From the IMG/VR virus record IMGVR_UViG_2671181118_000006: a DNA stretch of 31,778 bases. The stretch is one strand, 5' to 3'. The notes beneath the pieces were generated by a model. It saw nothing but the letters and a program-made list of their open reading frames with translations, made no database searches and had not been told where the DNA came from. The position numbers and the translations under genes were made by a program. Below are positions 7,257-31,778 of the stretch, in pieces; position 1 is the stretch's first letter, and each line of letters opens with the position of its first letter. Origin of the DNA: a virus (lineage: Duplodnaviria > Heunggongvirae > Uroviricota > Caudoviricetes).

Positions 7257-7311
7257 GATGGATCCCCTGAATAAAAACCGGGGATGATGCCAGTTAGCCG
7301 TAATCTCTGCA

Positions 7312-7337
7312 TTTTCTTAAACGTTGGTTTGGGAGAA
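7312..7337. other. invertase crossover site, hix/gix/cix-like (invertase-proximal)
   Basis: TTTTCTTAAACGTTGGTTTGGGAGAA. Its reverse complement, TTCTCCCAAACC-AA-CGTTTAAGAAAA, follows the 12-2-12 layout I remember for hixL (TTCTTGAAAACCAAGGTTTTTGATAA). Inverted copy of the site at 9617-9642. Confidence 0.7.
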
Positions 7338-7781
7338 GGTGCTCCAGCTATTGGCGTTCCGTTCTTCTGGCCGTCCGCTGCAATGCCAAATACTGTAATC
7401 GATAGCTGGTCCAGTATGGTGTTTTTGAAGTTCAACGGGGCGAAATTTTCTGCCTCTGATTACCCTGTGCTGGCAAAAGTGTTTCCTTCGCTGGTATTAC
7501 CTGAAGCCCGCGGTGATTTCATTCGTATCTGGGATGATGGGCGAGGGGCGGACAGTGGGCGAGCATTATTAAGCTGGCAGGCAGCAACATCTTTATCGCA
7601 ATTTGGCGGTAATTATCCAGAAGGGTCCGGCCATGCGATTGCTGATTACGATGGAATATCAGCACACCAGCCAGGTTTCTCTCGATTTCAGTACACCAGT
7701 AACTCAGTAGGAGATGGTGTTAATTTTATTGCCGTCAGACCACGTAACATTGCATTTAACTTTCTGGTGAGGGCTAAATAA
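7326..7781 (+). CDS. alternative tail-fibre C-terminal segment (silent cassette; would fuse to the H N-terminus after inversion)
   Basis: The open frame runs through the crossover site (..VGLGEGAPAIG..), in the same frame as the GLG codons at the H crossover. There is no independent RBS; the stop at 7779-7781 overlaps the ATG of the next gene. Confidence 0.65.
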   Translation, partial: GLGEGAPAIGVPFFWPSAAMPNTVIDSWSSMVFLKFNGAKFSASDYPVLAKVFPSLVLPEARGDFIRIWDDGRGADSGRALLSWQAATSLSQFGGNYPEGSGHAIADYDGISAHQPGFSRFQYTSNSVGDGVNFIAVRPRNIAFNFLVRAK

Positions 7782-8374
7782 TGAAACCTGTTTTTGATGA
7801 AAATGGACTGGCTACAGTGCCGGGTGATATGCGTTGTTTTTATTATGATGCAGTAACGTATGAATATACGGGCTGGTCTGATGAATATATTAATACTGGT
7901 GTAAGTATGCCCGCCTGTTCCACTGGTATTGACCCTGGCGAAAACATTCCGGGAAAAGTGGCTGTATTTACAGGTAAGGGATGGAGCCATGAAGAGGACC
8001 ATCGCAATGAGACTGTTTACTCAATCGAAAATGGCGCAGCTGTTACAGTGGATTATATCGGTGCCATCAAAAACGGTTATGTCACGCTTTCACCGTTAAC
8101 GCCATATGATAAATGGGATGGTGAGAAATGGGTGACAGATACTGAGGCACAACACGGTGCCGCAGTAGAAGCGGCAGAAGCACAGCGCCAGTCACTGATT
8201 GATGCAGCAATGGCTTCCATTAGTCTGATTCAGCTGAAATTACAGGCCGGGCGGAAACTGACGCAGGCAGAAACAACCCGGCTTAACGCTGTGCTGGATT
8301 ACATTGACGCGGTGACGGCAACAGATAGCAGCACCGCGCCGGATGTCATCTGGCCTGAACTGCCGGAGGCGTAG
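7781..8374 (+). CDS. alternative tail fibre assembly protein (U'-like)
   Basis: 197 aa; its C-terminus (NAVLDYIDAVTATDSSTAPDVIWPELPEA) is paralogous to the C-terminus of the expressed assembly protein (NAWLDYLDALEMVDTSGAPDIEWPTPP). Confidence 0.8.
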   Translation: MKPVFDENGLATVPGDMRCFYYDAVTYEYTGWSDEYINTGVSMPACSTGIDPGENIPGKVAVFTGKGWSHEEDHRNETVYSIENGAAVTVDYIGAIKNGYVTLSPLTPYDKWDGEKWVTDTEAQHGAAVEAAEAQRQSLIDAAMASISLIQLKLQAGRKLTQAETTRLNAVLDYIDAVTATDSSTAPDVIWPELPEA

Positions 8375-8789
8375 GCCATTCAATATCTGGCGCACCGGAA
8401 GTATCGACCATTTCCAGTGCGTCCAGGTAATCCAGCCACGCGTTATACTGTACCTTTTCGGCGTCTTTCAGCCGTCCCATTGCAGCTTTTCCCGGCCATT
8501 GCTTGCTGTTCATGTACTCGTTAGCCTGGTCGATTAGCAGTTGTTTTTGTGCTTCAGTTGCTGCAACAAGTTCATCGTGCGTTGGCGGCGGAATATCACC
8601 CCAGGCAGGAAAACCATCTTCACCAGCAATGCGGATTTTCCCTTTCGGTGGTTCGCCTGAATACTCAATAAACAGTTCTTCATCAACCTCCTTAGCATTG
8701 TCAAAATTCATTCCATTTGATTCATAAATTTCCTTCATAGCTATCGGATAGAAAGCATTTGTAGATACATCATAAAAATATTTATTCAT
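8346..8789 (-). CDS. G: tail fibre assembly protein
   Basis: Probable start is the ATG at 8787-8789 (MNKYFYD...), preceded by a GGGAGA RBS; the track ORF extends to 8816. Lies convergent with, and overlapping, the alternative assembly gene. Confidence 0.8.
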   Translation of the reverse strand: MNKYFYDVSTNAFYPIAMKEIYESNGMNFDNAKEVDEELFIEYSGEPPKGKIRIAGEDGFPAWGDIPPPTHDELVAATEAQKQLLIDQANEYMNSKQWPGKAAMGRLKDAEKVQYNAWLDYLDALEMVDTSGAPDIEWPTPPAVQAR

Positions 8790-8794
8790 TCTAA

Positions 8795-10456
8795 TTATCT
8801 CCCGATTGCAATCCATCGAGCGTAAATAACGGCTGGTGATGATGTTGAATTTAATAATTTGAACTGAGTATTACTGATAGGTTGAGCTGCAAAGCTATAA
8901 GGTGCACCTGAAGCGCCAGCGTTATCATATGAAGCAACAAGCTGAACTGTACTGTAATTTGTAAAAGGTATGTGGAAATTGATTGTCTGCGGATCGCCAA
9001 TTTGACCAGAGACTGCAATACCCCACTGGATAATAGTCCCACCCGGTAAAGATGCCCAGCCGGTACCACTCGTAAAACTAGACATATCCGGTATTTGTCC
9101 AGCACCTGTACCCACATTTTTTGTTGCTGCTGTACCCAGACTGAGGCTGGAAATAGATTGAGAAACAAACTGACGGGTGGCAAGCTGTATGATGTTATTC
9201 GATGCCGAATGCCTCATGTATGGGTCTTGTTGATTGTTGGAAATAAACCCAGCCACATCACACGCATCACGTTGGATAGCGTTTATATCAGCGGGAGTGG
9301 GTTTAAATCCTGTGTGGTACAACTTATACCAGTCAGAAAATGCAGTCTGACTCGTTTTTATCCTCACACTAAAGTCAGGAATGGAACCGAGAGACGCACC
9401 GCAGATTTGCCACCCGGTTGAACCTGAGTTAGCAAATGAAATACCACCAGCCCACTGCCCAGGATAAGGACCGATATTATCTGCAGGGGCAAAATAATCA
9501 AAGCGACTGACGTCCAACGCCGCCATAGTTCCGCTTACCTGGTCTGCCTTTATCCCAAGCCCCCACCCGCCATTTAATGCAATTTTACCCGTTTTATCTG
9601 TGAAGGATGATTGCAGTGTTCCCAAACCAAGGTATGCGAGAAGACCGGCAACATCCTTCCCACTCAAATGAGTCAGCGTCTCATCCAGTGGCTGCTTACC
9701 TGACAGCGCATTGTTAATGGTGGTACTGAATTTCGGGTCATTGTTAATGGCTGCGGCAATTTCTTTCAGTGTGTCCAGCGTGTCAGGGGCACCGTTAATC
9801 AGAGCGGTAATAGCGGCCTGTACAAACGCAGTGGTCGCAATCCGCGTGGTGTTATTTCCTGCGGCAGGCGTCGGCGCTTTTGGTTCTCCGGTAAATGTCG
9901 GATTATGTTTCTGTGCATACTGGGTATGAGGATCCTGTGCGGCAATGTGGTTTCTCATCTGGTCATCCACATACAGCTTTAATTCCAGGACTTTATCATC
10001 CACGTATTTACGGGTCGCCAGTACCACCGACGGGTCGATTTTCAGCGTGATGGCTTCGGTATTCGTGACAACCAGAATCATGCGGATAGTCTGGGTACGA
10101 CCACTGCCTTCCTGCAACTGCGGTTTGTACGTTTCCGGGCAGTTCGCCACCGCAATGAGTACGCCTTCATCATCATAAAGCCCAATCTCACGGATCCAGA
10201 ATCCGCCCTCGTTCTCAGGGATGATTTGCTCCGCAATAATCTGGCTCTGGTTGTTCGGGTCAACACTCAGAAGATTCAGCGGCGCGATGCGTTTCTGGTT
10301 AATCAGTTTTGTCTGTGCCGGGTCTGGTGTCGGCAAGACACCATTCGCATCACCAACGGCCATTTGCGTCAGATTCAGCTTACTGCCGAGCATCGTCGCG
10401 TTAGCCAGCCGTGCTGCGCCCTGATTAGTCAGAATGGCGTAGTATTTCACTGTCAT
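8795..10456 (-). CDS. H: tail fibre protein H (constant N-terminus plus currently expressed variable C-terminus)
   Basis: 553 aa; N-terminus MTVKYYAILTNQGAARLA...MAVGDANG resembles the P2 H / Mu S N-terminus; crossover site at about codon 275. Confidence 0.9.
   Translation of the reverse strand: MTVKYYAILTNQGAARLANATMLGSKLNLTQMAVGDANGVLPTPDPAQTKLINQKRIAPLNLLSVDPNNQSQIIAEQIIPENEGGFWIREIGLYDDEGVLIAVANCPETYKPQLQEGSGRTQTIRMILVVTNTEAITLKIDPSVVLATRKYVDDKVLELKLYVDDQMRNHIAAQDPHTQYAQKHNPTFTGEPKAPTPAAGNNTTRIATTAFVQAAITALINGAPDTLDTLKEIAAAINNDPKFSTTINNALSGKQPLDETLTHLSGKDVAGLLAYLGLGTLQSSFTDKTGKIALNGGWGLGIKADQVSGTMAALDVSRFDYFAPADNIGPYPGQWAGGISFANSGSTGWQICGASLGSIPDFSVRIKTSQTAFSDWYKLYHTGFKPTPADINAIQRDACDVAGFISNNQQDPYMRHSASNNIIQLATRQFVSQSISSLSLGTAATKNVGTGAGQIPDMSSFTSGTGWASLPGGTIIQWGIAVSGQIGDPQTINFHIPFTNYSTVQLVASYDNAGASGAPYSFAAQPISNTQFKLLNSTSSPAVIYARWIAIGR
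9617..9642. other. invertase crossover site, hix/gix/cix-like (inside tail fibre gene H)
   Basis: TGTTCCCAAACC-AA-GGTATGCGAGAA, inverted relative to the 7312-7337 site and sharing the (T)TCCCAAACC half-site. Lies in frame inside H at about codon 275, encoding ...LAYLGLGT... Confidence 0.7.
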
Positions 10457-19216: not shown

Positions 19217-19389
19217 TGTCAGGAGTCCTGAATAGTGATTAGAGGAGTCACATGTCGGCATCAGTTTCCCGACGATGCGCATCCTCCGCCATCAGTCCCG
19301 GATGGCTTATCACTGACACAACAGCACCTTAGCGAATCGCGGGGCGCGACTCAGTAGCCTTGCCGTGTATTCATCACGGCGAGGTATTC

Positions 19390-21162
19390 ATGACCATCAC
19401 CACAGACACCACTCTTTTACACGACCCGCGTCGTCAGGCGGCGCTGCTGTACTGGCAGGGGTTTTCCGTGCCGCAGATTGCCGCCATGTTGCAGATGAAA
19501 CGCCCGACGGTGCAGAGCTGGAAACAGCGCGACGGCTGGGACAGCGTTGCCCCCATCAGCCGTGTCGAAATGAGTCTGGAAGCGCGGCTGACCCAGCTCA
19601 TCATCAAACCGCAGAAAACCGGCGGTGACTTCAAGGAAATTGATCTGCTCGGACGCCAGATTGAACGACTGGCACGGGTCAACCGTTACAGTCAGACCGG
19701 CAACGAGGCAGACCTTAATCCGAACGTCGCTAACCGCAACAAAGGCGGGCGTCGCAAACCGAAAAAGAATTTTTTCAGTGACGAGGCCATCGAAAAGCTG
19801 GAGCAGATTTTCTTTGAGCAGTCTTTCGACTATCAGTTGCACTGGTATCGCGCCGGGCTTGAGCACCGCATCCGCGATATCCTGAAATCCCGCCAGATTG
19901 GCGCGACGTTTTATTTTTCCCGCGAGGCGCTGCTGCGCGCCCTGAAAACCGGCCATAACCAGATTTTTCTGTCGGCCAGTAAAACGCAGGCGTATGTGTT
20001 CCGCGAATACATCATCGCCTTTGCCCGTCTGGTTGACGTTGACCTGACCGGTGACCCGATTGTCCTGGGCAATAACGGCGCAAAACTGATTTTTCTCGGC
20101 ACCAACTCCAACACCGCACAGAGCCATAACGGTGACCTGTACGTCGACGAGATTTTCTGGATCCCGAATTTTCAGGTACTGCGTAAGGTGGCATCAGGTA
20201 TGGCCTCACAGAGTCACCTGCGCTCTACCTATTTCTCCACCCCGTCCACGCTGGCGCACGACGCCTACCCGTTCTGGTCGGGTGAACTGTTCAACCGGGG
20301 ACGCGCCAGCGCCGCCGAACGTGTGGAAATCGACGTCAGTCATAACGCCCTTGCCGGTGGGCTTCTCTGTGCGGACGGCCAGTGGCGGCAGATTGTCACC
20401 ATTGAGGACGCCCTGAAAGGTGGCTGCACGCTGTTCGACATTGAGCAGCTTAAACGCGAAAACAGCGCCGACGATTTTAAAAACCTGTTCATGTGTGAAT
20501 TTGTTGACGACAAGGCGTCGGTGTTCCCGTTCGAGGAGCTGCAACGCTGCATGGTCGACACGCTGGAAGAATGGGAAGACTATGCGCCGTTTGCCGCGAA
20601 TCCGTTCGGCTCCCGCCCGGTCTGGATTGGTTACGACCCGTCACACCGTGGCGACAGCGCCGGATGCGTGGTACTGGCACCGCCGGTAGTGGCCGGAGGC
20701 AAATTCAGAATACTTGAGCGTCACCAGTGGAAAGGCATGGACTTTGCCACCCAGGCTGAATCCATCCGCAAACTCACCGAAAAATATAACGTCGAATACA
20801 TCGGTATTGATGCCACCGGCCTCGGTGTCGGCGTGTTCCAGCTCGTGCGCTCGTTCTATCCCGCCGCGCGCGATATCCGCTACACACCGGAAATGAAAAC
20901 CGCAATGGTGCTCAAGGCAAAAGACGTTATCCGTCGTGGCTGTCTGGAATATGACGTCAGCGCCACCGACATCACCAGCTCGTTTATGGCTATCCGCAAG
21001 ACCATGACCAGCAGCGGACGCAGCGCCACCTATGAGGCCAGCCGCAGCGAGGAAGCCAGCCACGCCGACCTCGCCTGGGCGACCATGCACGCCCTGTTAA
21101 ATGAGCCACTCACCGCCGGTATCAGCACCCCGCTGACATCCACCATTCTGGAGTTTTACTGA
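19390..21162 (+). CDS. P: terminase large (ATPase) subunit P
   Basis: 590 aa from the ATG at 19390, which is preceded by GAGG; same length as P2 gpP; divergent from O. Confidence 0.9.
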   Translation: MTITTDTTLLHDPRRQAALLYWQGFSVPQIAAMLQMKRPTVQSWKQRDGWDSVAPISRVEMSLEARLTQLIIKPQKTGGDFKEIDLLGRQIERLARVNRYSQTGNEADLNPNVANRNKGGRRKPKKNFFSDEAIEKLEQIFFEQSFDYQLHWYRAGLEHRIRDILKSRQIGATFYFSREALLRALKTGHNQIFLSASKTQAYVFREYIIAFARLVDVDLTGDPIVLGNNGAKLIFLGTNSNTAQSHNGDLYVDEIFWIPNFQVLRKVASGMASQSHLRSTYFSTPSTLAHDAYPFWSGELFNRGRASAAERVEIDVSHNALAGGLLCADGQWRQIVTIEDALKGGCTLFDIEQLKRENSADDFKNLFMCEFVDDKASVFPFEELQRCMVDTLEEWEDYAPFAANPFGSRPVWIGYDPSHRGDSAGCVVLAPPVVAGGKFRILERHQWKGMDFATQAESIRKLTEKYNVEYIGIDATGLGVGVFQLVRSFYPAARDIRYTPEMKTAMVLKAKDVIRRGCLEYDVSATDITSSFMAIRKTMTSSGRSATYEASRSEEASHADLAWATMHALLNEPLTAGISTPLTSTILEFY

Positions 21163-22196
21163 TGAGCAAGAAAAAAGGGAAAACACCGCAACCTGCGGCA
21201 AAAAAAATGACTGCCAGCGCCCCGAAAATGGAGGCATTCACCTTTGGTGAGCCGGTGCCGGTACTCGACCGCCGTGACATTCTGGATTACGTCGAGTGCA
21301 TCAGTAACGACAGATGGTATGAGCCACCGGTCAGCTTTACCGGTCTGGCAAAAAGCCTGCGTGCTGCCGTACATCACAGCTCACCGATTTACGTCAAACG
21401 CAATATTCTGGCTTCAACGTTTATTCCGCACCCGTGGCTTTCCCAGCAGGATTTCAGCCGCTTTGTGCTGGATTTTCTGGTGTTCGGTAATGCGTTTCTG
21501 GAAAAGCGATACAGCACCACCGGTAAGGTCATCAGACTGGAAACCTCACCGGCAAAATATACCCGCCGTGGCGTGGAGGAGGATGTTTACTGGTGGGTGC
21601 CGTCCTTCAACGAGCCGACAGCCTTCGCGCCCGGCTCCGTGTTTCATCTGCTGGAGCCGGATATTAATCAGGAGCTGTACGGCCTGCCGGAATATCTCAG
21701 CGCCCTTAACTCTGCCTGGCTGAATGAGTCGGCCACGCTGTTTCGCCGCAAGTATTACGAAAACGGCGCACATGCCGGATACATCATGTACGTCACTGAT
21801 GCCGTACAGGATCGCAACGATATCGAAATGCTCCGCGAAAACATGGTGAAGTCGAAAGGCCGCAACAACTTTAAAAATCTGTTTCTCTATGCCCCACAGG
21901 GGAAAGCCGACGGCATTAAAATTATCCCGCTCAGTGAAGTCGCAACGAAGGACGATTTTTTTAATATCAAAAAAGCCAGCGCCACTGATCTGCTGGACGC
22001 GCACCGCATCCCCTTTCAGTTGATGGGCGGCAAGCCGGAGAACGTCGGGTCGCTGGGTGATATTGAGAAAGTGGCAAAAGTCTTTGTCCGCAATGAGCTT
22101 ATCCCGCTACAGGACAGGATCCGCGAGATAAACGGCTGGCTCGGTCAGGAGGTCATCCGCTTTAAAAACTACTCACTGGACACTGACAACGGCTGA
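21162..22196 (+). CDS. Q: portal protein Q
   Basis: 344 aa, same length as P2 gpQ; start overlaps the P stop (TGATG). Confidence 0.9.
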   Translation: MSKKKGKTPQPAAKKMTASAPKMEAFTFGEPVPVLDRRDILDYVECISNDRWYEPPVSFTGLAKSLRAAVHHSSPIYVKRNILASTFIPHPWLSQQDFSRFVLDFLVFGNAFLEKRYSTTGKVIRLETSPAKYTRRGVEEDVYWWVPSFNEPTAFAPGSVFHLLEPDINQELYGLPEYLSALNSAWLNESATLFRRKYYENGAHAGYIMYVTDAVQDRNDIEMLRENMVKSKGRNNFKNLFLYAPQGKADGIKIIPLSEVATKDDFFNIKKASATDLLDAHRIPFQLMGGKPENVGSLGDIEKVAKVFVRNELIPLQDRIREINGWLGQEVIRFKNYSLDTDNG

Positions 22197-22201
22197 ACAT
22201 C

Positions 22202-22223
22202 GCCGCCTGCGGGCGGCTTTTTT
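22202..22223 (+). terminator. rho-independent terminator of the P-Q operon
   Basis: GCCGCC-TGCG-GGCGGC hairpin followed by TTTTTT, immediately after the Q stop. Confidence 0.8.
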
Positions 22224-22358
22224 ACAACCCGTCATCACGGCCTCACACGCTCACCACCGCACAAAACACCCCGCAGACACACCAACGCCCCGGCAGGCCG
22301 ACTAAATGCCATCACGACGCGCTCAGACGCAAAAAAACTGTCACTACCACGCCGTTAC

Positions 22359-22383
22359 GTTGGCCACATAAAATGTGGCCAAC
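22359..22383. repeat. perfect 10-bp-stem inverted repeat at the cargo boundary (putative terminator or insertion scar)
   Basis: GTTGGCCACA-taaaa-TGTGGCCAAC, 6 nt downstream of the stop of the 22389-23375 ORF on the minus strand; no adjacent T-run. Confidence 0.5.
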
Positions 22384-22388
22384 TCCAG

Positions 22389-23375
22389 TTATAATAATTT
22401 GTCCAGCCTAGCTGAAACAATACCTAGAACAACTGTTGAAACTATATTTACCACCACTCTTAAAATACTCTTCTTTCGCTTCTTACTATATTCATCATAC
22501 AACCTCTCATCACCCTTATTTAATACAATGTACGATGCTGGAGTATAACCATCAATTAATCTCTCTAGGCCTTCACCTAAATGCTCCGCTAACAATGGGA
22601 TAATAGAAAACGCACCAAGAAAGAGCATTAAAAATTTTACTAACCTTTCTTTATCACCAATATCAATATATTCACCAACATTGTACAGTGCATAACTTAA
22701 AATCAATATAGAAAAAGAAAACCGCATAATCAGTGGGATTAAATACGATATCCTTTGAGCTTGCTGTATCAATGGTATTTTGTTTGTAACTCTTTGACAT
22801 CCTTCAACCCATTCTTTAAATGCTTCGATAAAACCTCTAGCCACTACATAATCAGCATATTCAACAACTATTTCTGCTGAACTGGTGAGCATGAATGCAA
22901 CAAAACGCCCCCTAATGAAAGGTGGTGCATCTTCTTCCATTTCTTTCTGCATAGCAATTCTTGATGCTAATTTAACAGTAACTTCATAGTGGTTAGGTAA
23001 TGATGCCCCTGTCGATAAAATTGCAAAGTTATATTTTAAAATTACACTAATTGTTGGACTACTTCCCGCACTACTCGACATTGCAAACTTATCAAAAGAG
23101 GTAAACTGTTCCTTTCTATCTTTTGAATGTAAAATAGTTACCGTTTCATTTTTCGATATAATATTATGAACATCACACAATTGATTTATTTTTTGATGAA
23201 CGCTTCTTATCTCATCGATATTTATAAGTAAATTCTCAGAGGTTCTCTGCCTTATTGTTTCTGTTGTTCCCGTTATATGTTGATAAATTTGCTGATAAAT
23301 ACGAATGCTAGTATTAATATCCCGAGAAGCAGGTAACCCACTATTAATCCCATTATTTTTTTTCATTTGACTCAT
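22389..23375 (-). CDS. hypothetical protein with a soluble N-terminal domain and three C-terminal transmembrane helices (cargo; candidate phage-defence or exclusion effector)
   Basis: Roughly 328-codon ORF in AT-rich DNA, where long ORFs are unlikely by chance. ATG candidates at 23373-23375 and 23364-23366; the track start at 23378 is a TTG. Hydrophobic segments ISYLIPLIMRFSFSILILSYALY, LVKFLMLFLGAFSIIPLLA and ILRVVVNIVSTVVLGIVSA. No family recognised. Confidence 0.7.
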   Translation of the reverse strand: MSQMKKNNGINSGLPASRDINTSIRIYQQIYQHITGTTETIRQRTSENLLINIDEIRSVHQKINQLCDVHNIISKNETVTILHSKDRKEQFTSFDKFAMSSSAGSSPTISVILKYNFAILSTGASLPNHYEVTVKLASRIAMQKEMEEDAPPFIRGRFVAFMLTSSAEIVVEYADYVVARGFIEAFKEWVEGCQRVTNKIPLIQQAQRISYLIPLIMRFSFSILILSYALYNVGEYIDIGDKERLVKFLMLFLGAFSIIPLLAEHLGEGLERLIDGYTPASYIVLNKGDERLYDEYSKKRKKSILRVVVNIVSTVVLGIVSARLDKLL

Positions 23376-23637
23376 CAATTATAACACTCATTTTATTTCC
23401 TATAAAAACTTAACCAGCAAATTAAACAAAAAGAACACAAGGTTATTATTTAGCGTGCAACAACACGATTGCACAACCAAATGCCACGTGTACGAATCTA
23501 ACCATTCTCTTATATTAAATCAAGTCAATACAACCTAATAGACACATTTTTTTATCGCAGTTATACACTTGGTTAACAATATGCGGATAGTTACTCAAAT
23601 CAAATTACATATATGACAAAATGAACAATTGCGCGCA

Positions 23638-23656
23638 GTGCTTTCCCCGCCTCGCC
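23638..23656. other. cos cohesive-end site (P2-type 19-nt)
   Basis: GTGCTTTCCCCGCCTCGCC is the reverse complement of GGCGAGGCGGGGAAAGCAC, which I recall as the P2 19-nt cohesive end. Position between Q and the A-side accessory region is as expected. Confidence 0.75.
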
Positions 23657-23862
23657 CGCCCGCTTCATGGGGCGGTTTTAATGCAGTTGCATGACCACTC
23701 AACTAGCGCGCCAGTCCTGATGTCGCCAGGCAGTTATTGTTCTCTGACTTGCGTGCGCTTCGATGCAGAGTAATGCACTTCCTGAATTGCTCGCATTCGC
23801 ATCGTTATCATGATAGAAAACAGGTAGTTATTTGTGCGCAACTTAAGAAGAAATCACTAATT

Positions 23863-25407
23863 ATGAAAAAGATTTATGAATTAACTACTGGTAGAGCGCT
23901 TAAGTATTTTCTGCAGCATGATTCATACACTACTCTGGAGCTACCCAGTTATGTCGATTTTTCTTCCTTGCTTGAAGAAATCAACTCCGCGATAGATGAA
24001 GGTAAAATCAACTTCCAACCTGACTCCAAGTCATTGATGGGGAAGAATATAAATTACGAGGTTTTAGTCAGCAAAGATGGCTTATATAGCTGGCGACGAA
24101 TAACACTAATTAATCCTCTGTACTACGTGTATTTTTGTAAACTTATTACATCCTCTTCCAACTGGAATGCTATAAGGAATAAATTTAGAGAGTTTGAGTC
24201 TAATGATCTTTTTTTATGCTCAAGTATCCCAGTGAGCAAAAAGAACACCTCAAACGTAGCTGCATCTGTTTTAAACTGGTGGGAAGATTTTGAACAAAAA
24301 AGTCTTTCATTGGCTCTTGAGTATGAGTTCATGTTCAGCACAGATATTTCAAACTTCTACCCTTCTATTTACACTCATAGCTTTGAATGGGTATTCATCT
24401 CAAAAGAAGAGGCCAAAAAGAAAGAAAATAACAATAACCCAGGACGATTGATTGACACTCATATCCAGATGATGATGAGTAATCAGACAAACGGAATACC
24501 ATTGGGTAGTACGTTGATGGATACATTTGCCGAATTAATTTTAGGCGAAATTGATTTACAGCTAAGAAAAAAAACCGAAGAGCAAAAAATAACGGATTAC
24601 AAAGTAGTTCGCTACAGAGATGATTATCGAATATTTTCAAGCAGTAAAGATGATTTGGACAAAATCTCAAAGTGTTTGGTTGAGGTCTTAGGTGAGTTTG
24701 GGCTTGATTTAAACTCAAGAAAAACAGAACTACATGACGACATCATTCTTCACTCCCTTAAATCAGCAAAAAAAGAATATATTATAGAAGGGTCGTTCAA
24801 CTCCCTACAGAAAATGTTGTATGCAATATATTTATTTTCTTTAAAACATCAAAACTCCAAAATTACAGTCAGATATTTAAATGATTTCTTGCGGAAATTA
24901 TTTAGGAAGAAAAAGATCACAAATAGTGGGCATCAACTAGATGCAATGCTTGGAATTATTTCAAGCATCATGGCTAAAAACCCAACCACCTACCCAGTGG
25001 GAATGGCTATTTTCGCAAAACTCTTGACCTTCCTTTATGACGACGATGAACTCAAATTTGGCAAGTTACAACAACTTCATTGTAAACTAGGTAAACAACC
25101 AAATACTGAAATGTTAGATATTTGGTTTCAACGAGTTCAAGGGAAGATACACACACAATGGGAAGGCGATTACAAAACAGCCCTATGTCAACGCATAAAT
25201 GATGAACTCAAGGAAAAAAAAACATTTACCATTGATGGCCTGTGGGATGTAGAGTGGATTCCGGGTTCAGCCAAAAATAAAAACAAACAGAAAATACTAT
25301 CAATTTTGAAAAAAACAAAAATTGTGGATTTAGATGCATTCGAAGAAATGGATACTGATATTACACCAGAAGAAGTGAACTTATTCGACAAGGAACACAG
25401 CGCTTAA
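23863..25407 (+). CDS. reverse transcriptase, Abi-P2-like (UG/Abi class) defence-associated RT
   Basis: 514 aa from the ATG at 23863 (the track ORF begins further upstream at 23737). RT motifs readable in the translation: FSTDISNFYPSIYTHSF (motif A-like), NGIPLGSTLMDTFAELILGEID (motif B-like), VVRYRDDYRIFSS (Y-x-DD catalytic motif C), GLDLNSRKTEL (motif D/E-like). The C-terminal 200 aa or so is helical and unassigned. AT-rich; occupies the tin/old slot between cos and A. Confidence 0.85.
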   Translation: MKKIYELTTGRALKYFLQHDSYTTLELPSYVDFSSLLEEINSAIDEGKINFQPDSKSLMGKNINYEVLVSKDGLYSWRRITLINPLYYVYFCKLITSSSNWNAIRNKFREFESNDLFLCSSIPVSKKNTSNVAASVLNWWEDFEQKSLSLALEYEFMFSTDISNFYPSIYTHSFEWVFISKEEAKKKENNNNPGRLIDTHIQMMMSNQTNGIPLGSTLMDTFAELILGEIDLQLRKKTEEQKITDYKVVRYRDDYRIFSSSKDDLDKISKCLVEVLGEFGLDLNSRKTELHDDIILHSLKSAKKEYIIEGSFNSLQKMLYAIYLFSLKHQNSKITVRYLNDFLRKLFRKKKITNSGHQLDAMLGIISSIMAKNPTTYPVGMAIFAKLLTFLYDDDELKFGKLQQLHCKLGKQPNTEMLDIWFQRVQGKIHTQWEGDYKTALCQRINDELKEKKTFTIDGLWDVEWIPGSAKNKNKQKILSILKKTKIVDLDAFEEMDTDITPEEVNLFDKEHSA

Positions 25408-25508
25408 CGAAACAATGTTATTAACTCAACATGACTTCGTTAAGCATTAAAGCGAACAGTCATATGAAATTTCGACATCCCTAACGCCTCGCAAGCTCGT
25501 TGTTCAAC

Positions 25509-25551
25509 CCCGCCAGCACTGAAAGCGAGTTTCAGCGTCGGCGGGATTTTC
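25509..25551 (+). terminator. putative intrinsic terminator downstream of the RT
   Basis: Imperfect hairpin CCCGCC..CTGAAA-gcgag-TTTCAG..GGCGGG followed by ATTTTCT. Confidence 0.45.
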
Positions 25552-25572
25552 TATGGTCAACGTGGTGACAGA

Positions 25573-25833
25573 TTATGGGCACGCGTGAAGGTAGAAATAT
25601 GGACGGTTGGGATTATTTATTTCTCCCATACGGCTGCAGTTATCACTGACGATCTCAGTCCCTCCGACCAACTCGTAGAGGGTCAGATTCTCTTTGACCA
25701 TAATTTGTAAACAATAGCCATCAGCCGGAGACTCTTGCACGAGTACAATGGCGGAACCGGACGCATAGCTAGTAATGTATGCATTAGTCATAATGACATG
25801 CTTCCAAAGCAAGATTGCCACGCAGTTCCGCAT
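25573..25833 (-). CDS. small hypothetical protein downstream of A (possibly orf91-like)
   Basis: 86-aa ORF (or 72 aa from the internal ATG at 25789-25791), co-directional with and just downstream of A; no strong RBS. Weak call. Confidence 0.35.
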   Translation of the reverse strand: MRNCVAILLWKHVIMTNAYITSYASGSAIVLVQESPADGYCLQIMVKENLTLYELVGGTEIVSDNCSRMGEINNPNRPYFYLHACP

Positions 25834-25894
25834 GATCCATCAGTTGCTGATACCAACCATCAAGTGGAAGCAAAATCAACCATTTCAATCATTT

Positions 25895-28171
25895 TTATAT
25901 GTTTGTTGAGAATCCCGGCCACTCATCAGCAGCCAGATACGTGAATTGTTTCCCGTCATAATTTACGGTTGCCCCACGCGCCAGCGCCTCAAGCTCCCAT
26001 CGCTGGGGCAAGATTCCATTCTGAGCAAGGTCAACGCGGATACGGGTGATTTGCAATCGTTCCGACCGGCTCAGTCTGGCCGATGGTGCAATTTCATGTG
26101 GTTTTAACGGGCTTCCGTTTCTTTGCTGACGGTTTGGCGTTCTCAGCCCGTGTTTTAATGCGCCCCTGAGTGCCTTCACGACCTCCGGCTCATTCCATTC
26201 GATAATACCGTCATCAACCAGATTAAGCACTGCTGCGGCGTGCTCAGAAGGTGTGGGAGCCGGTAACGAAGTATCACCACCGGTGAGCTTTCCACAGTTA
26301 TTGACAGGACTCCGAGGCGCGGCGATGCCGCTTTTTAAAGTTAAAGGCTCCACGACCGGAACTTTCGGAACAATGCGCCAGTCCGTCGTTCTGGTGATAT
26401 GAATATGACGCGCGCCGAGATGCGGCGCGTAAATGCCGACCACTCTCTCGACTTCTTCCTCGTACTCGTTAACTTCATCCGACGGGCTACGGGCGACTCT
26501 GACAGTCTGGCAATCGCGCGGAACATTTGCCCCACCCTGCGCACTGATATACAACGCAAAATCGCCACTGTCTGCGGCAGCGCGTGCAGCCTCGACGCGT
26601 TCGTCAAACTCATCAGCAATGCTGACGCCGCGAGGCAATTTGCGTAGTTCACGGTAAGCCCCCATTGTCGGCAGACCAACCGTTTTAAATTGCGGGATGC
26701 GCCACGTTGACGCCCATGCAGTAACAGCCGCGGCAGTATCTTTCAGAGGTCTGCCGGTATCGTTATCGAGCTGACCATCCAGTGCATAGCCGTCGATATT
26801 TTTTGAAATGTATTTCGCGATATATCCCGCAGCACCGCCCCGGTTAAGGTGCTTTGCCTGAAAACGGTTTCGCGCGGCTCCTCTTTCGTCACCATCCTCT
26901 TTGAGCGCATAGCGACGCATGATTTCGATAATCTGATTACGCTGGCGTGGATTACAAAAAAGCATCATATGCCAGTGCGGCGTTCCGTCGTGGTGTGGCT
27001 CGACGACACGCAAACCGTAGACCTGTAAATCATTATCCTTGAATGCCGTGCGCATCAGGCTCCAGATGCGGCAGAGATAACGCTGCGCATCCTTTGGATT
27101 AAATGCCTCATCGTTCCAGCCGTGATTTAGCTGGACGGTTTTACTTTCGCCTTTTCCGACCTGACGTGTCGGGTGATACTTTGACGGCGCGGTCAGCGTG
27201 ATAAACATCCCCACATCACCCTCTGCGGCGGCGTAACGCTCAATACCGGCAATGGTGTTCATCAGCTCCATCCGGCGAATTTCAGGATTAGAAATACTTC
27301 CCATCACCTTACTGATAAGGTCGATGCGCTCGCCGGTTTCCCTGTTTTCAAGGTCACACGATTTAAGAAATTCCAGATTTGCCTGGCGGCGCGCACGCAC
27401 ATCACGAATGGCATGTTTACTGGCATAAGGAGAACGGTCTTTATTGACCTCCCCGACAGCAATCAGTAACGCTTCATGCCAGCGCATACGTTGACCTTTA
27501 AGCTGATGAGTCCACCAGTCATCGTTAAACAGGCGGGCAATGGCAGAATATGCCTGCCTCGTGGTCATCTGTCCTTTACGGTATTTTTTCCAGTAAAGCG
27601 GGGAAATATTGAAAGCACGTGCAGCGCCAGCAACATGACCATACAGGTGAGCCTGCGCCTCATCCGTAAACAGCGATTCTTTTTCACCATGCGCATCAAC
27701 CCATGCATCGCAGAGTTCCTCATACATCATGAAAAGCTGCGATGAGATACGGGCGGCAAACTTTTTCAGCTCCTTGTCATTCATTCCAGGCAGGCGCGCA
27801 TAGTGGCCACGCTCTGCCAAAAACAGCAACGACGCGTCGGTGTTCATTTCATGGCGCTGATTCACGCGCTCAATGCGCGGCCATAAACGACGCTGAAAAG
27901 TGGATGTGAGGAAATAAAACCCGTGCACCGGGCTTTTATTGCGCCGGATGTAGTCATAGCGTGAAGTAAACAGCGAACGCAAAAAGTAAGGCAGGCGGTT
28001 AATCGTGGATAAAACACCTTGCACCTGACGCATCTCGTCACGTGTAAGGGGTCTTTCGCGCCCGACGGCCTCGCGTGGCGCGTTCCATGCATAAGCACCG
28101 GTAAACGTCTTACCGGTGCCTGCGGCAAATGCTGACGGAGGGACAAAACGCCCGGAGACTTTAACGGCCAT
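25895..28171 (-). CDS. A: replication initiation endonuclease A (rolling-circle Rep)
   Basis: About 758 aa from the ATG at 28169-28171 (MAVKVSGRFVPPSAFAAGTGK...); the track ORF has a TTG-initiated extension. Contains HxH (PHWHMM) and a conserved Tyr region (YIAKYISKN). Size and position match P2 gpA. Confidence 0.9.
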   Translation of the reverse strand: MAVKVSGRFVPPSAFAAGTGKTFTGAYAWNAPREAVGRERPLTRDEMRQVQGVLSTINRLPYFLRSLFTSRYDYIRRNKSPVHGFYFLTSTFQRRLWPRIERVNQRHEMNTDASLLFLAERGHYARLPGMNDKELKKFAARISSQLFMMYEELCDAWVDAHGEKESLFTDEAQAHLYGHVAGAARAFNISPLYWKKYRKGQMTTRQAYSAIARLFNDDWWTHQLKGQRMRWHEALLIAVGEVNKDRSPYASKHAIRDVRARRQANLEFLKSCDLENRETGERIDLISKVMGSISNPEIRRMELMNTIAGIERYAAAEGDVGMFITLTAPSKYHPTRQVGKGESKTVQLNHGWNDEAFNPKDAQRYLCRIWSLMRTAFKDNDLQVYGLRVVEPHHDGTPHWHMMLFCNPRQRNQIIEIMRRYALKEDGDERGAARNRFQAKHLNRGGAAGYIAKYISKNIDGYALDGQLDNDTGRPLKDTAAAVTAWASTWRIPQFKTVGLPTMGAYRELRKLPRGVSIADEFDERVEAARAAADSGDFALYISAQGGANVPRDCQTVRVARSPSDEVNEYEEEVERVVGIYAPHLGARHIHITRTTDWRIVPKVPVVEPLTLKSGIAAPRSPVNNCGKLTGGDTSLPAPTPSEHAAAVLNLVDDGIIEWNEPEVVKALRGALKHGLRTPNRQQRNGSPLKPHEIAPSARLSRSERLQITRIRVDLAQNGILPQRWELEALARGATVNYDGKQFTYLAADEWPGFSTNI

Positions 28172-28436
28172 GTGAGCCAAAAGCCTCTGAACAACGCTTG
28201 CTGAGTTGCTCAACCTGCGCGTTTAAATCAGCAAAAGATTTTGCGCTTCCGGTCATAATATCGTGATGCATCAGGCCGGAAACGAGCTGGCTTAATTTCG
28301 GGTAATAACCAACCACCGCCAGCCATTCCTGACCGGCGTTTTTACCGCTTTCAGCTCTCTTTTTCTCGTGGAGAATAAACTGAAAGCTGTCACTGGTAAC
28401 GACATAACGTTCGCCAATTTCAATACGAATACTCAT
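28161..28436 (-). CDS. early-operon hypothetical protein (orf83-like)
   Basis: 91 aa; tightly packed between the zinc-finger ORF and A, overlapping the A start. Confidence 0.7.
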   Translation of the reverse strand: MSIRIEIGERYVVTSDSFQFILHEKKRAESGKNAGQEWLAVVGYYPKLSQLVSGLMHHDIMTGSAKSFADLNAQVEQLSKRCSEAFGSHGR

Positions 28437-28663
28437 GCCGTTCTCCGGTAATGTTTGTTTTTTGCTTCAAAGACTGACTGGCAGGAAACACAACGCGTGG
28501 CTGACGGATAAGCCGCACGACGGGCAGCAGGTATTGGCGCGTCACACTCTTCGCAAACCAGCGCAGAAGCACCGCAATGTTTTACCCTTGCCGCGTTAAT
28601 CTGACGCTCCAGTAATTCAGCCTGTTGTTCCTGAATAAAATCTACGTTGTCCGGCATTACCAA
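28433..28663 (-). CDS. C4 zinc-finger protein (TraR/DksA-like; orf82-like)
   Basis: 76 aa with CGASALVCEEC...TRCVSCQ (Cys-x...-Cys-x2-Cys ... Cys-x2-Cys). Confidence 0.75.
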   Translation of the reverse strand: MVMPDNVDFIQEQQAELLERQINAARVKHCGASALVCEECDAPIPAARRAAYPSATRCVSCQSVFEAKNKHYRRTA

Positions 28664-28962
28664 CTCCTTTTGTCGTTAAGTTTTTTAAATTCATCAGCGC
28701 AATAGCTAGCAATTTCTGTCGTTAATTTCGTCAGTTCATCCACGGAGGAGATTTGCTTGTGAAATACAGCGCGTTTAACAAGTAAATTGACCACATCAGA
28801 CAGGAGATTTAATTCGTTCTGATAAATCGCGATAACAGACTCAGTTATTTCGCGTTTTTCTTTATCAAGACCAAGTTGAATAAGAGATAAATCGCCATTT
28901 TTCATAACGGTGATTTTTAAGGCGTTATTCAGTAATACAACTGAACGAGAACAGGACATCAA
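28657..28962 (-). CDS. early-operon hypothetical protein (orf81-like)
   Basis: 101 aa; overlapping-stop/start packing in the early operon. Confidence 0.65.
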
Positions 28963-29183
28963 AGCACCTCCCCGCGAGACAATCCGATATTGTGAAATTT
29001 TTCCGACTCCTGACTGAGCAGCTCGACTATCTCTACGCGGGATAACTCCGCCTTTGTGATGTGGCGAATCATGGCGTCAAGATGAGAAGAAAAGCGCGTC
29101 GCTGCGTCGGCCTGTGCTTCGGTTCTGGCCTGTTGCAGCAGTAATGCGTATTTACCGCACTGATTTTCAGAAACTGTATGCAT
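28959..29183 (-). CDS. early-operon hypothetical protein (orf80-like)
   Basis: 74 aa from the ATG at 29181-29183 (MHTVSENQ...), preceded by a GGAGAAAG RBS. Confidence 0.65.
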
Positions 29184-29246
29184 GACTTTCTCCAGGCAAA
29201 AAGAAGCCCCGCACAATTAAGTGCGTTAAAAACTCTGGTTAATTAC

Positions 29247-29747
29247 TTAATGCAGATATTGCTCTGGTTTTACCGACGTCAGAATTGTCGGTGCATACTC
29301 AAACAGGCTGAATAATTCACGTAATGCACGGAATAAGGCATCACGCCAGTAACATGATTCTTCATTAATTCGCCAGTATGGCTGGTTGAATTCTTTTTCA
29401 GTCAATCCGGCATGCATAAATAAAGTACGGCGCTGACTGACAGTTAAAAAGCTAATATATGCATACTCACTTGCACCGACCTGACGGCGTTTTGAGAATG
29501 CCCCACGCAGTTCATCAATTGCACATACCAGTCGTTCACGTTCGACGTCGTTCATTTCTTCAAAACGCATCGTTGCGTGACGCTGTTTTAACTGCGCATG
29601 AAAGCAAACCGTTAGCCGTTCGCGTTCCATCATCTGATTATAATAATCGCATGTCTCCTGCCAGCGAGGGACGGCCAGATGCTTACCAATTATCCGGCGC
29701 ATGGCTGCTGGCTGTTTTTCGACGAGATTAAGCGTCATCACTGTCAT
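29247..29747 (-). CDS. B: replication protein B (helicase loader)
   Basis: 166 aa, same length as P2 gpB; position between the cox-side small ORF and orf80. Confidence 0.85.
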   Translation of the reverse strand: MTVMTLNLVEKQPAAMRRIIGKHLAVPRWQETCDYYNQMMERERLTVCFHAQLKQRHATMRFEEMNDVERERLVCAIDELRGAFSKRRQVGASEYAYISFLTVSQRRTLFMHAGLTEKEFNQPYWRINEESCYWRDALFRALRELFSLFEYAPTILTSVKPEQYLH

Positions 29748-29914
29748 TTCCAGACCCTCCGGCTTTTCAGAAAGGTCAGAGCCTTTTTTAACGGACTCTG
29801 TTTTTTGGTACGGATAATGATTCCCTTGCGTCCCTTCCCGTGGGTGATGGTGAAGTCAATCGCCCTGGGGCTTTCGTTACGCAATAACTGAGCAATACAA
29901 CGAGGCTCGTTCAT
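29744..29914 (-). CDS. small early protein (orf78-like)
   Basis: 56 aa from the ATG at 29912-29914 (MNEPRCIAQ...), preceded by AAGGTGGA overlapping the cox stop; its stop overlaps the B start. Confidence 0.55.
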   Translation of the reverse strand: MNEPRCIAQLLRNESPRAIDFTITHGKGRKGIIIRTKKQSPLKKALTFLKSRRVWK

Positions 29915-29924
29915 CCTTTCCACC

Positions 29925-30296
29925 TTAAGCCGCACGGCCATGTCTTGATTTGCTGTAACTAATGCGATTTTTCCATTCATGCCATTCTGTCGGAGCTTCA
30001 TCAACCAGTTGGGCTGCGTACTTGTCCCACTCACGGCGATTAATCCATAATTCAGCTTTCCCTCTTGGTTTTAATGGGTCTGTCATGTAGAAGGCTGGCA
30101 GCTTGCCTGCTTTAGCCATTTCAGCCACCGCGCGTGGTGTCTTACCGATGTAAAGAGCAAAACCTTCTTTCGACAGCAAATCAGATGGGCGCTCTGAAAT
30201 CTGAATGCTTTTACGTTTGGCTTCATTTTCGAAACTTGCCTCATCGCTAGTTGGACAAGAAATTTCTACATTTGTCGTCACTTTGCTATCCTCCAT
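29925..30296 (-). CDS. cox: Cox-like excisionase / early-promoter regulator
   Basis: First gene leftward from the immunity switch; the core EGFALYIGKTPRAVAEMAKAGKLPAFYMTDP resembles the P2 Cox HTH as I remember it. Start is ambiguous: the ATG at 30296 has no RBS, while the in-frame GTG at 30279-30281 is preceded by GGAGGA. Confidence 0.7.
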   Translation of the reverse strand: MEDSKVTTNVEISCPTSDEASFENEAKRKSIQISERPSDLLSKEGFALYIGKTPRAVAEMAKAGKLPAFYMTDPLKPRGKAELWINRREWDKYAAQLVDEAPTEWHEWKNRISYSKSRHGRAA

Positions 30297-30389
30297 AAGA
30301 TTTGCGATTCACCAACTGGAGCCATCTAGAGCCTTTTTGAGTGAATCACAAATTGCCAAGTAACAATATAATTGGAGATTAGCAAAATT
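30297..30389. promoter_or_regulatory. immunity switch region (divergent Pe/Pc promoters and operators expected)
   Basis: 93-bp divergent intergenic region between cox and C; contains imperfect direct repeats (ATTCACCAACTGGAG / AATCACAAATTGCCA). Assigned by position only. Confidence 0.5.
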
Positions 30390-30689
30390 ATGTCAAGTGA
30401 ACAAAGTGAGAAACTAAAGCTCATCCGTGAATCCGAACGCCTTAAAACTAAGGAACTTGCTGAATTAATTGGAATTAATTACTACACATATCATGGATAT
30501 GAATCAGGAAAATCAAAAATGCCTATGGAAGCAGGTATGAAGCTGTTTAAGCATCCACGCTTTCGCAAGTATCGTGACTGGTTCATGTTTGATGAAACAG
30601 ATCCAGCAGCTGGACAAATAGCCCCGGCTCTCGCACACATTGGGCAAGACTCAACAACCTTGCACCACTCAGACCAGAAGACTGGCTGA
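30390..30689 (+). CDS. C: immunity repressor C
   Basis: 99 aa from the ATG at 30390 (the track ORF starts at a TTG), same length as P2 C. The C-terminus GQIAPALAHIGQD...QKTG matches my recollection of P2 C; the N-terminus differs. Confidence 0.85.
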   Translation: MSSEQSEKLKLIRESERLKTKELAELIGINYYTYHGYESGKSKMPMEAGMKLFKHPRFRKYRDWFMFDETDPAAGQIAPALAHIGQDSTTLHHSDQKTG

Positions 30690-30782
30690 CGATTTATTCA
30701 GCATATGTGTGTAGTAAATGTACGAAAGAAAATTGCATTAATTTTCAAGTAGTAGAAGTAAACAGCGTCATCGGAGGGCTTT

Positions 30783-31778
30783 ATGTCTATTAAAAAGCTC
30801 GATGATGGTCGTTATGAAGTGGACGTCAGACCGCAGGGTGCAGATGGAAAACGTATCAGGCGGAAATTTAAAACTAAAGGTGAAGCTCAAGCATTCGAAC
30901 GTCATGTACTGGTTAACTACCACAACAAAGAGTGGTTGGAGAAACCAGCCGACCGCCGAACTCTTACAGAGTTGTTAGGCAGATGGTGGATATATCACGG
31001 AAAATCACATGAGCGTGGAGATATTGAACGGGGGCGTTTAACGACAATAATCGCCAAATTTGCAGAAATGGGAGTGTCCAGAGCTGACCAGCTAACAAAG
31101 AAAACGATAACTGATTATCGCGTTGTAATGATGAACGATGGTCTAAAACCAGCCAGCGTAAATCGACATCTGGCAATAATGAGTGGGATGTTCACCAAGT
31201 TAATTGACGCCGGTGAATACCACTCTCACAACCCGTTCCGTGAGATTAAACGGTTACGTGAAGCTGTTACGGAAATGGCTTTTTTGTCCAGTGAAGAGAT
31301 TACGCGGCTGTTATCCATGCTTGATGGTGATGAATTAAATGCAACTCTGGTCTGCCTTTCTACTGGTGGACGCTGGAGTGAAGTGTCTAATTTAAAAGCT
31401 GAACACATCATTAACCAGATGGTTACGTTTATGAAAACTAAAAACGGAAAACGCAGGACAATTCCCGTTTCGCAGGACCTGATTAAACGGATCAAGACCA
31501 AAAATTCAGGCAGGCTTTTTAATGCCAGTTACTACAAAGTGCGTAACGCTCTCAGGGAAGTAAAACCCGATTTACCTGACGGACAAGCAGTACATGTTTT
31601 GAGGCATACATTTGCCACACATTTTATAATGAATGGAGGTAACATAATCACATTGCAGCGCATCCTGGGTCATTCTAACATTCAGCAAACTATGACCTAC
31701 GCACACTTTGCACCGGATTTCTTACAAGATGCTGTGACTCTTAACCCGGTGTCAGGAATGTCCATAATGCGTCCATAA
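30783..31778 (+). CDS. int: tyrosine integrase
   Basis: 331 aa, GGAGGG RBS; C-terminal catalytic region HVLRHTFATH...LGHSNIQQTMTYAHF (Arg/His/Tyr of tyrosine recombinases). The stop is the last codon of the window. Confidence 0.9.
   Translation: MSIKKLDDGRYEVDVRPQGADGKRIRRKFKTKGEAQAFERHVLVNYHNKEWLEKPADRRTLTELLGRWWIYHGKSHERGDIERGRLTTIIAKFAEMGVSRADQLTKKTITDYRVVMMNDGLKPASVNRHLAIMSGMFTKLIDAGEYHSHNPFREIKRLREAVTEMAFLSSEEITRLLSMLDGDELNATLVCLSTGGRWSEVSNLKAEHIINQMVTFMKTKNGKRRTIPVSQDLIKRIKTKNSGRLFNASYYKVRNALREVKPDLPDGQAVHVLRHTFATHFIMNGGNIITLQRILGHSNIQQTMTYAHFAPDFLQDAVTLNPVSGMSIMRP

Follow-up and report, generated by a model that had tools for sequence, protein, structure and literature searches.

In the P2-like (Peduovirus) prophage IMGVR_UViG_2671181118_000006, the whole 31,778-nucleotide stretch of which is referred to here as the window, the interval between the portal gene Q and the replication gene A is very probably a cos-proximal accessory-gene hotspot with two independently exchangeable cargo slots. 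The slot on the Q side carries a gene for a membrane protein and that on the A side carries the gene for the reverse transcriptase (RT) Abi-P2, while between the two cargo modules conservation against the P2 reference is confined to a core of approximately 55 bp around cos (23631-23685). The sequence-only reading of this DNA had described unrelated cargo of low guanine-plus-cytosine (GC) content on both sides of cos, with the two genes oriented divergently around it, and this description was borne out: the open reading frame (ORF) for the membrane protein is on the minus strand and convergent with Q, the RT ORF is on the plus strand and convergent with A, and 484 bp (23379-23862) separate their starts.

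Two cargo slots around cos

The window represents the prophage in its integrated order, namely ogr (1-282), the tail and head genes, P, Q, A, the early genes and int (30783-31778). The features which delimit the two slots are as follows.

19360-21162, plus strand: terminase gene P (Pfam Terminase).
21162-22196, plus strand: portal gene Q, the backbone edge of the hotspot on the first side (Pfam Phage_portal).
22200-22217, plus strand: Rho-independent terminator after Q (terminator scan; aligns with the annotated tQ of P2).
22332-23630: Q-side cargo module of approximately 1.3 kb and 32.9% GC (junctions aligned against the P2 left end and against strain VTB97448v, in which the site is empty).
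23631-23685: conserved cos core, comprising 7 bp, the 19-nt cohesive end (23638-23656) and a 29-bp segment that contains a GC hairpin (aligned to P2, to pro147 and to the empty site).
23721-25903: A-side cargo module, comprising the RT leader, the RT gene and a 0.5-kb 3' flank (23721-25450 was found in 64 of 5,426 genomes).
25895-28213, minus strand: replication gene A, the backbone edge of the hotspot on the other side (Pfam Phage_GPA, 4.4e-124).

The flanks of the interval are matched by approximately 100 Peduovirus genomes, and the 3' end of Q and its terminator are kept in approximately 100 P2-like phages. A prophage with nothing on its Q side ceases to be homologous at about 22332, while general P2 homology resumes at 25904, just inside gene A, and these junctions agree with the cargo limits of 22338 and 25895 that had been proposed from the letters of the sequence. 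A repeat search found no direct repeats flanking either cargo, and there is hence no sign of transposition or site-specific insertion.

The position of cos was established from the 19-nt P2 cohesive-end sequence GGCGAGGCGGGGAAAGCAC, which has a single exact match in the window (23638-23656, minus strand) and which was present in none of 100 shuffled sequences. Between the end of the Q-side cargo and the cohesive-end sequence there are 7 bp, whereas RT-specific DNA begins 29-64 bp away from it on the other side, where homology in other P2-like phages extends to about 23720. Four sequences were compared, two with unrelated cargoes and two with empty sites, and in each of them the Q-side breakpoint lies exactly 7 bp from the cohesive end. 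The cos-proximal junction of the Q-side module, which itself substitutes for about 20-28 bp of the empty site, is also that of the retron Ec48 cargo in phage pro147.

The distribution of the two modules was assessed in 5,426 complete Escherichia coli genomes. The RT module was present in 64 of these and the Q-side module, as a unit, in ten, while the whole 3.8-kb interval with both modules occurred in one, strain HKUOPY1, against a chance expectation of 0.29 joint occurrences computed for the 2,213 genomes in which a P2-type match was present. Obligate co-occurrence of the two genes as one unit is clearly at odds with these counts. The RT allele (at least 99% identity) was verified by alignment to occur with an empty Q side in genome H32, and the same arrangement is suggested for 21 further genomes (H33-H53) by identical two-piece matches spanning about 2,529 bp; in pro147, EC93, EC-107 and ATCC 43896, the same allele is accompanied by retron Ec48 on the Q side. 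Conversely, the membrane gene was encountered with at least six other A-side contents, including a DUF7380 protein, a 783-aa (amino acid) AAA ATPase, an ASCH protein together with a 313-aa protein of unknown function, and an arrangement with no ORF above 81 aa; Table S5A of Rousset 2022 (PMC9122126) adds a DUF4238 protein and another hypothetical protein. Thus, cargo varies (empty, retron Ec48, DUF7380, AAA ATPase and others) while the flanks stay at least 90% identical. The Q end is contiguous with cos, as it is in P2, in at least 1,526 of the 2,156 E. coli genomes with a match, and the Q-side slot appears to be usually empty in the E. coli relatives of this prophage. Judged from these comparative counts and varied partners, and not from base composition, the two sides were acquired independently and carry unrelated cargo.

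Many unrelated complete E. coli assemblies carry the region at identical record coordinates (e.g. 2222-4751). These seem to be chromosomes which were rotated to start at the P2 gpA gene, an artefact of assembly rotation and not biology.

The A-side reverse transcriptase

The A-side module contains the following features.

23863 (ATG) to 25407 (stop), plus strand: Abi-P2 reverse-transcriptase-like polymerase of 514 aa (Pfam RVT_1; PADLOC AbiP2).
25402-25445, plus strand: hairpin overlapping the RT stop codon, with an 18-nt inverted repeat (fold -16.7 kcal/mol, z = -6.6).
25481-25544: 64-bp segment with a GC-rich hairpin followed by a U tract (megablast to phage 186 and to Yersinia and Salmonella 186-like phages; fold).
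25573-25833, minus strand: small ORF of 86 aa (ORF85 of P2-EC58; 72-aa PHROG core), downstream of A (phrog_13272, 2.8e-54).

The A-side protein is assigned by its similarity to Abi-P2, and specifically to the P2-EC58 orf544 allele. It matches the PADLOC AbiP2 profile at 9.8e-160 (residues 1-512 on profile positions 4-487 of 489) and the PDB entry 7r08 at 1.8e-256 across residues 1-508; its identity is 99.0% with orf544 of P2-EC58 and 74.7% with the enzyme of P2-EC30 (orf570). An alternative upstream ATG at 23773 would give the orf544 form. The motif A aspartate is intact (TDISNFY, residue 160), YRDD is present at residues 251-254, and Y30 corresponds to the priming Tyr61 of 7r08, the crystallised construct being offset by 31 residues. 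Abi-P2 of P2-EC30 is a single-gene system from a variable locus which confers resistance to phage T5, and the enzyme forms trimers or hexamers and performs template-less single-stranded DNA synthesis primed on Tyr61 (Figiel et al. 2022, PMC9508834). By analogy with this homologue, protein-primed, template-independent DNA synthesis and abortive infection are predicted for the RT described here: it would prime DNA synthesis on its own Tyr30, produce untemplated single-stranded DNA and protect the lysogen against T5, and anti-phage activity of this allele is accordingly presumed from that of its relative.

The RT gene stands alone, as its module also occurs with an empty Q side and as no template RNA was matched (a search of 22100-26000 against Rfam returned no family at E <= 1, retron-type RNA included). 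The leader, RT gene and 3' flank appear, from their shared distribution, to be inherited as one unit. Downstream of the RT, the segment 25481-25544 is approximately 92% identical to the right-end region of 186 and of 186-like Yersinia and Salmonella phages; it is likely the RT terminator and is probably a terminator remnant of past recombination. The ORF85 region is the only constant neighbour of the RT: the 344-bp stretch with ORF85 (25551-25894) occurs in 64 E. coli genomes, a number equal to that of the RT carriers, the two sets not having been cross-checked. ORF85 is annotated in P2-EC58 and pro147, is not annotated by RefSeq and is absent from the P2-EC30 record.

In P2 the A-side position is held by orf91, tin and old, and transcription of old-tin begins about 150 bp from cosR and proceeds toward A; the place and direction of the RT match those of old-tin. 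We therefore regard the A-side slot as the classical old-tin position, in which Abi-P2, with its own leader and terminators, would be transcribed away from cos toward A.

The Q-side membrane protein and its family

The Q-side module consists of the membrane-protein gene, 252 bp of upstream DNA of 29% GC and a 3' hairpin, as detailed below.

22352-22378, minus strand: perfect 11-bp hairpin just past the stop codon of the membrane gene (fold -20.2 kcal/mol, z = -3.5).
22389-23378, minus strand: membrane-protein gene, a 329-aa ORF (325 aa from the ATG at 23366; ORF list and translation; AlphaFold2 model with a predicted local distance difference test score of 83).
23356-23363: homopolymeric run of 8 T, or 8 A when read on the coding strand (alignment of five copies, the four others of which have 7).
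23379-23630, minus strand: AT-rich (29.4% GC) 252-bp region upstream of the membrane gene (composition; in the module of all ten genomes).

The upstream region presumably holds the promoter of the membrane gene, and the 3' hairpin may act as a terminator, albeit one lacking a U tract. Hydropathy peaks near residues 209-233, 245-269 and 303-327 of the 329-aa protein mark three C-terminal transmembrane (TM) helices, and an AlphaFold model built with 46 homologues comprises an alpha/beta domain (about residues 14-190) followed by three long helices with hydrophobic cores. A KKRKK stretch ahead of the third helix implies, within this model, an N-in, C-out topology which would place the alpha/beta domain in the cytoplasm.

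The 329-aa protein and eight of its homologues matched no Pfam, NCBIfam, PHROGs or PADLOC family, the only Pfam hit of the protein being a sub-threshold one to DUF3894 (18.6 bits against a cutoff of 25), while a profile search of PDB sequences was empty. Kinship with the retron Ec48 effector was also considered and was discarded at an hhalign probability of 0.1%. The protein nonetheless belongs to a sizeable family, in which a profile search recovered at least 359 clusters at 90% identity, all named "hypothetical", and 1,033 representatives at 50% identity (E <= 1e-3). The best-scoring representatives listed are nearly all 320-345 aa in length, and the alignment contains 28 invariant columns, many of them polar, with E36, R84, E86, D172 and D286 among the invariant residues; the lone fusion (P0260, 548 aa) bears an extension without a Pfam or PADLOC match. 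Members derive from Gamma- and Betaproteobacteria.

The genomic neighbourhoods of these homologues are varied. A P2-like prophage of Serratia marcescens has a homologue of 44% identity which, like the gene described here, is convergent with the portal gene; its distance from a cos-like site is 107 bp. In a Yersinia enterocolitica P2-like prophage (L024, 5728-9595), the portal side of cos also houses the homologue, which is there reversed so as to point toward cos and shares the slot with an AAA_15/AAA_21 ATPase, such that two cargo genes occupy the portal side. The family thus occurs in either orientation and can share the slot with another candidate system. In Pantoea, the neighbour of the homologue is the truncated portal gene of a remnant prophage. 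Outside prophages, the homologue adjoins a split integrase (Acidovorax), or is found beside a SymE toxin (Providencia), beside an Ltp-type lipoprotein and a Phd antitoxin (Vreelandella), within a ParDE/YoeB/type I restriction-modification/Fic island (Thiopseudomonas) or within a Fic/HsdM/NERD/BrnTA island (Limnohabitans); in one metagenomic contig it is located between housekeeping genes. In the loci examined, the homologue was always a lone gene outside prophages, set in toxin-antitoxin or restriction islands or in small insertions, and no RT neighbour was found in other genera. The pattern would fit an autonomous accessory gene which frequents defence loci, this evidence being circumstantial.

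A defence role for the Q-side gene

The Q-side slot carries a self-contained 1.3-kb module encoding one protein, the cytoplasmic alpha/beta domain of which would sense infection while its three TM helices would damage or gate the inner membrane. Abortive infection or exclusion, with the protein expressed from the prophage, is its most likely role, at odds that we put as about even; a defence role is suggested by its position and context, and expression of the cargo from the prophage is likewise presumed. A further-reaching proposal is somewhat more doubtful than this: that the gene founds a new and widespread single-gene anti-phage system, in which an alpha/beta domain with a fold so far not linked to immunity would be the sensor and the TM helices would execute abortive infection or exclusion at the membrane, and in which the tract of seven or eight A residues (codons 10-12) may be a slippage switch that limits a costly protein.

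The claim that the interval is a two-sided defence island accordingly holds for the RT side, which is Abi-P2, but not as yet for the Q side, the protein of which has no homology to any known defence protein. A number of further findings weigh against a functional defence island. Firstly, the 8-A run shifts the frame at codon 12 (+1) relative to the 333-aa consensus, the start codon of which (ATG 23390) has a good Shine-Dalgarno sequence; with 8 A this start is out of frame and the 325-aa product from ATG 23366 is left, and this copy may therefore be poorly expressed or inactive. Secondly, the copy in strain H9 (NZ_CP195976.1) is split by IS1A, and a 263-aa truncated product has been deposited from the same chromosome. 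Thirdly, a promoter scan yielded five sites compared with 12.3 in shuffled sequences, with no convincing sigma-70 consensus, and the sole intergenic site overlaps the start of an ORF. Finally, the anti-T5 phenotype belongs to the P2-EC30 allele of Abi-P2, to which the RT described here is 74.7% identical, and the hotspot is known to hold non-defence genes as well, such as partition systems and toxins (Rousset 2022, PMC9122126).

With regard to the 8-A variant, identical or near-identical 325-aa products have been deposited from three other records with slightly different backgrounds, and a lookup of the exact 325-aa sequence found no record. The variant may be real and recurrent, arising through slippage and possibly serving as an on/off or dosage switch, or it may be a recurrent homopolymer error.

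The principal alternative is that the Q-side gene has no anti-phage function and is instead other lysogenic-conversion or selfish cargo (a host-physiology membrane protein or a toxin-like addiction factor) or a decaying, inactive passenger. We consider this quite possible, though somewhat short of an even prospect. The lack of homology to defence families, the non-defence genes of the hotspot, the 5' frameshift and the IS1 disruption would all suit such cargo, as would the occurrence of some homologues among housekeeping genes without defence neighbours and the rarity of the protein in E. coli (10 of 5,426 genomes). Against it, selection in that setting is suggested by the recurrence of this family, with 44-56% identity, in the cos-adjacent slot of four genera, and both the length of the protein and its many invariant polar residues are strongly kept across about 1,000 clusters. 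The slot and orientation are, moreover, the same as those of the validated retron Ec48, the neighbours of homologues include type I restriction-modification, Fic, NERD, BrnTA, ParDE and an Ltp-type lipoprotein, and genes of unknown function from hotspots have a high experimental success rate, six of eight randomly chosen unknown loci of the P4 hotspot having proved protective (NAR 2026, PMC13586616). Similarly, over one third of those systems which Rousset 2022 had cloned were active (PMC9122126).

Intergenic DNA and the relationship between the two genes

The sequence-only reading had proposed that the two genes share a divergent control region of about 480 bp that contains cos. The length of 484 bp and the presence of cos within it are correct, but the intergenic DNA is a composite of the 252 bp that travel with the membrane gene, the cos core of approximately 55 bp and the upstream DNA specific to the RT. 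Each module brings its own upstream DNA and its own 3' hairpin or hairpins, and since this module-specific upstream DNA lies on either side of a minimal cos, the 'shared control region' amounts to mere physical adjacency. It had also been supposed that the genes become neighbours in the circular replicating form; they are indeed adjacent, but already so in the lysogen, as the window is in prophage order.

It is very unlikely that the RT and the membrane protein constitute one system, in which, as in retron Ec48 or in certain systems of defence-associated reverse transcriptases, a polymerase would act as sensor and a membrane protein as effector, both controlled from a shared divergent region. 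Systems of an RT plus a TM effector do exist, retron Ec48 occupies the same slot in related prophages, and in the lysogen the two genes lie side by side and point away from each other. This explanation is effectively refuted by distribution, in that the single joint occurrence in 5,426 genomes contrasts with 64 for the RT and ten for the membrane gene, and each gene is seen with other partners or alone. Abi-P2 is, furthermore, known as a single-gene system (PMC9508834), homologues of the membrane protein in other genera have no RT neighbour, the protein is unrelated to the Ec48 effector and no retron-type RNA was found; and the genes, which are divergent, separated by cos and found together in a single genome, are not co-transcribed or co-inherited. 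Two independently exchangeable slots remain the preferred interpretation of the interval.

Base composition and codon usage

Both cargo genes are foreign by composition. The membrane gene has a GC content of 33.0% (24.5% at third codon positions) and the RT gene one of 35.1% (36.1% at third codon positions), compared with 53-57% for P, Q and A and 53.5% for the remainder of the window. In a sliding scan, GC drops from 52-60% to 31-41% over 22250-25500, and elsewhere in the window no 1.3-kb or 1.7-kb stretch falls below 42% (z of about -4.6 and -4.3, respectively). Synonymous codon usage differs from that of the backbone at p of about 1e-36 for the membrane gene and 1e-27 for the RT, such that the compositional contrast with the backbone noted by eye was upheld by both measures. 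The difference in codon usage between the two cargo genes themselves is marginal (p = 0.02), and its use as a sign of two different donors was consequently abandoned in favour of comparative genomics. The proposal that AT-richness indicates independent acquisitions was therefore right as to independence, which follows from the comparative evidence presented above, but not as to its grounds, as composition cannot show separate events.

That the P2 backbone is natively AT-rich around cos for regulatory reasons (such as H-NS silencing or packaging), the low GC content then being no mark of foreign origin, is scarcely credible, for although these phages commonly have AT-rich DNA beside cos and the window contains other mildly AT-rich parts (42-45% GC at 8501-9250 and 28500-31750), P2 and at least 1,526 E. 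coli genomes join the Q end straight to cos without an AT-rich block, the empty-site alignments show such blocks to be present or absent as discrete modules with sharp junctions, homologues of both genes also occur outside P2-like phages (e.g. in Listeria phage RTs and in Betaproteobacteria) and the cos core itself has a GC content of 63%.

Other features of the window

Two further stretches of the window are moderately AT-rich (39-45% GC), namely the early/immunity/int end (28500-31778) and the 3' part of the tail-fibre gene (8501-9250).

The Z/fun position (6663-8374), between the tail sheath and tail-fibre assembly genes, contains a serine invertase (Resolvase and HTH_7; 6663-7256, minus strand), a 165-aa ORF that faces the other way and another assembly gene of the Caudo_TAP family, the second of its kind (7284-8374, plus strand). 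In its gene content it looks like an invertible host-range cassette of the Gin/Cin type; an inverted-repeat search found no crossover sites in it.

Relation to known systems

The gpA-gpQ locus has been described as a hotspot for defence, its 18,150 occurrences falling into 1,650 arrangements and many loci carrying more than one system (Rousset 2022, PMC9122126), and the earlier recognition of gpQ-gpA variability is credited there to Odegrip 2006. More recently, rapid modular swapping was reported for the GpA-GpQ hotspot, with AbiP2 among the P2-specific systems (NAR 2026, PMC13586616). Table S5A of Rousset 2022 lists the membrane protein (WP_053285577 and WP_083583072) as "hypothetical" beside different partners, and no sign of it was found among the systems cloned in that study (PMC9122126).

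The interval analysed here lies in the same place between Q and A, beside cos, as the gpQ-gpA hotspot of P2 (the TO region, with old and tin). It displays the same swapping of AT-rich cargo among near-identical prophages, often with more than one system, and its A-side gene is situated as old-tin is. It differs in that the P2 hotspot has been published as one hotspot, whereas here the cos core splits two independently assorting slots, and we found no statement to this effect in the published hotspot descriptions examined. In addition, the pairing observed here is rare (1 of 5,426) and P2 itself has nothing on the Q side.

Among known elements, Abi-P2 of P2-EC58 (orf544) is the closest to the A side, with 99.0% identity, the same flanks including ORF85 and nothing of substance that differs. 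Abi-P2 of P2-EC30 (orf570; PDB 7r08) is 74.7% identical and shares the priming tyrosine, the motif A aspartate and YRDD, the T5 phenotype having been reported for the EC30 allele (PMC9508834). Phage pro147 and the E. coli EC93-type prophages have the same two-sided layout, with retron Ec48, then cos, then the same Abi-P2 allele, the DNA being 99% identical over a span that starts 7 bp before cos and reaches gene A; their Q-side cargo also encodes a membrane effector and is transcribed toward Q, but it is a two-gene retron (an RT and a 2-TM effector) in contrast to the single unrelated 3-TM protein found here. In the psu-int hotspot of P4 satellites, variable defence cargo likewise abuts the shared P2/P4 cos core, in either orientation, although the element differs, as do the flanking genes, and almost no cargo is common to P2 and P4 (PMC13586616). 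With single-protein membrane abortive-infection factors, such as the 2-TM effector of Ec48 and proteins of the RexB type, the Q-side protein has in common that it is a small prophage-accessory inner-membrane protein with a soluble domain, few TM helices and no enzymatic signature, a likeness which is a functional analogy only.

In summary, the organisation read from the letters of the sequence was correct in every particular except adjacency in the lysogen, while its interpretation is supported in part, the hotspot and Abi-P2 having already been published, a fact which that reading did not recognise. The location of the hotspot, the RT and the mechanism of the RT being established in the literature, the locus itself adds little to them, and its division by cos into two slots is a small refinement and not a discovery. 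The presence of two slots around a minimal cos core nevertheless sharpens the question of the route by which cargo is swapped, which may be recombination at the cos ends, as speculated by Rousset et al. (PMC9122126), or plain selection for a minimal terminase site. Given the high experimental success rate of unknown hotspot genes, the large unannotated membrane-protein family that occupies this slot across four genera is a reasonable candidate for a new defence gene.

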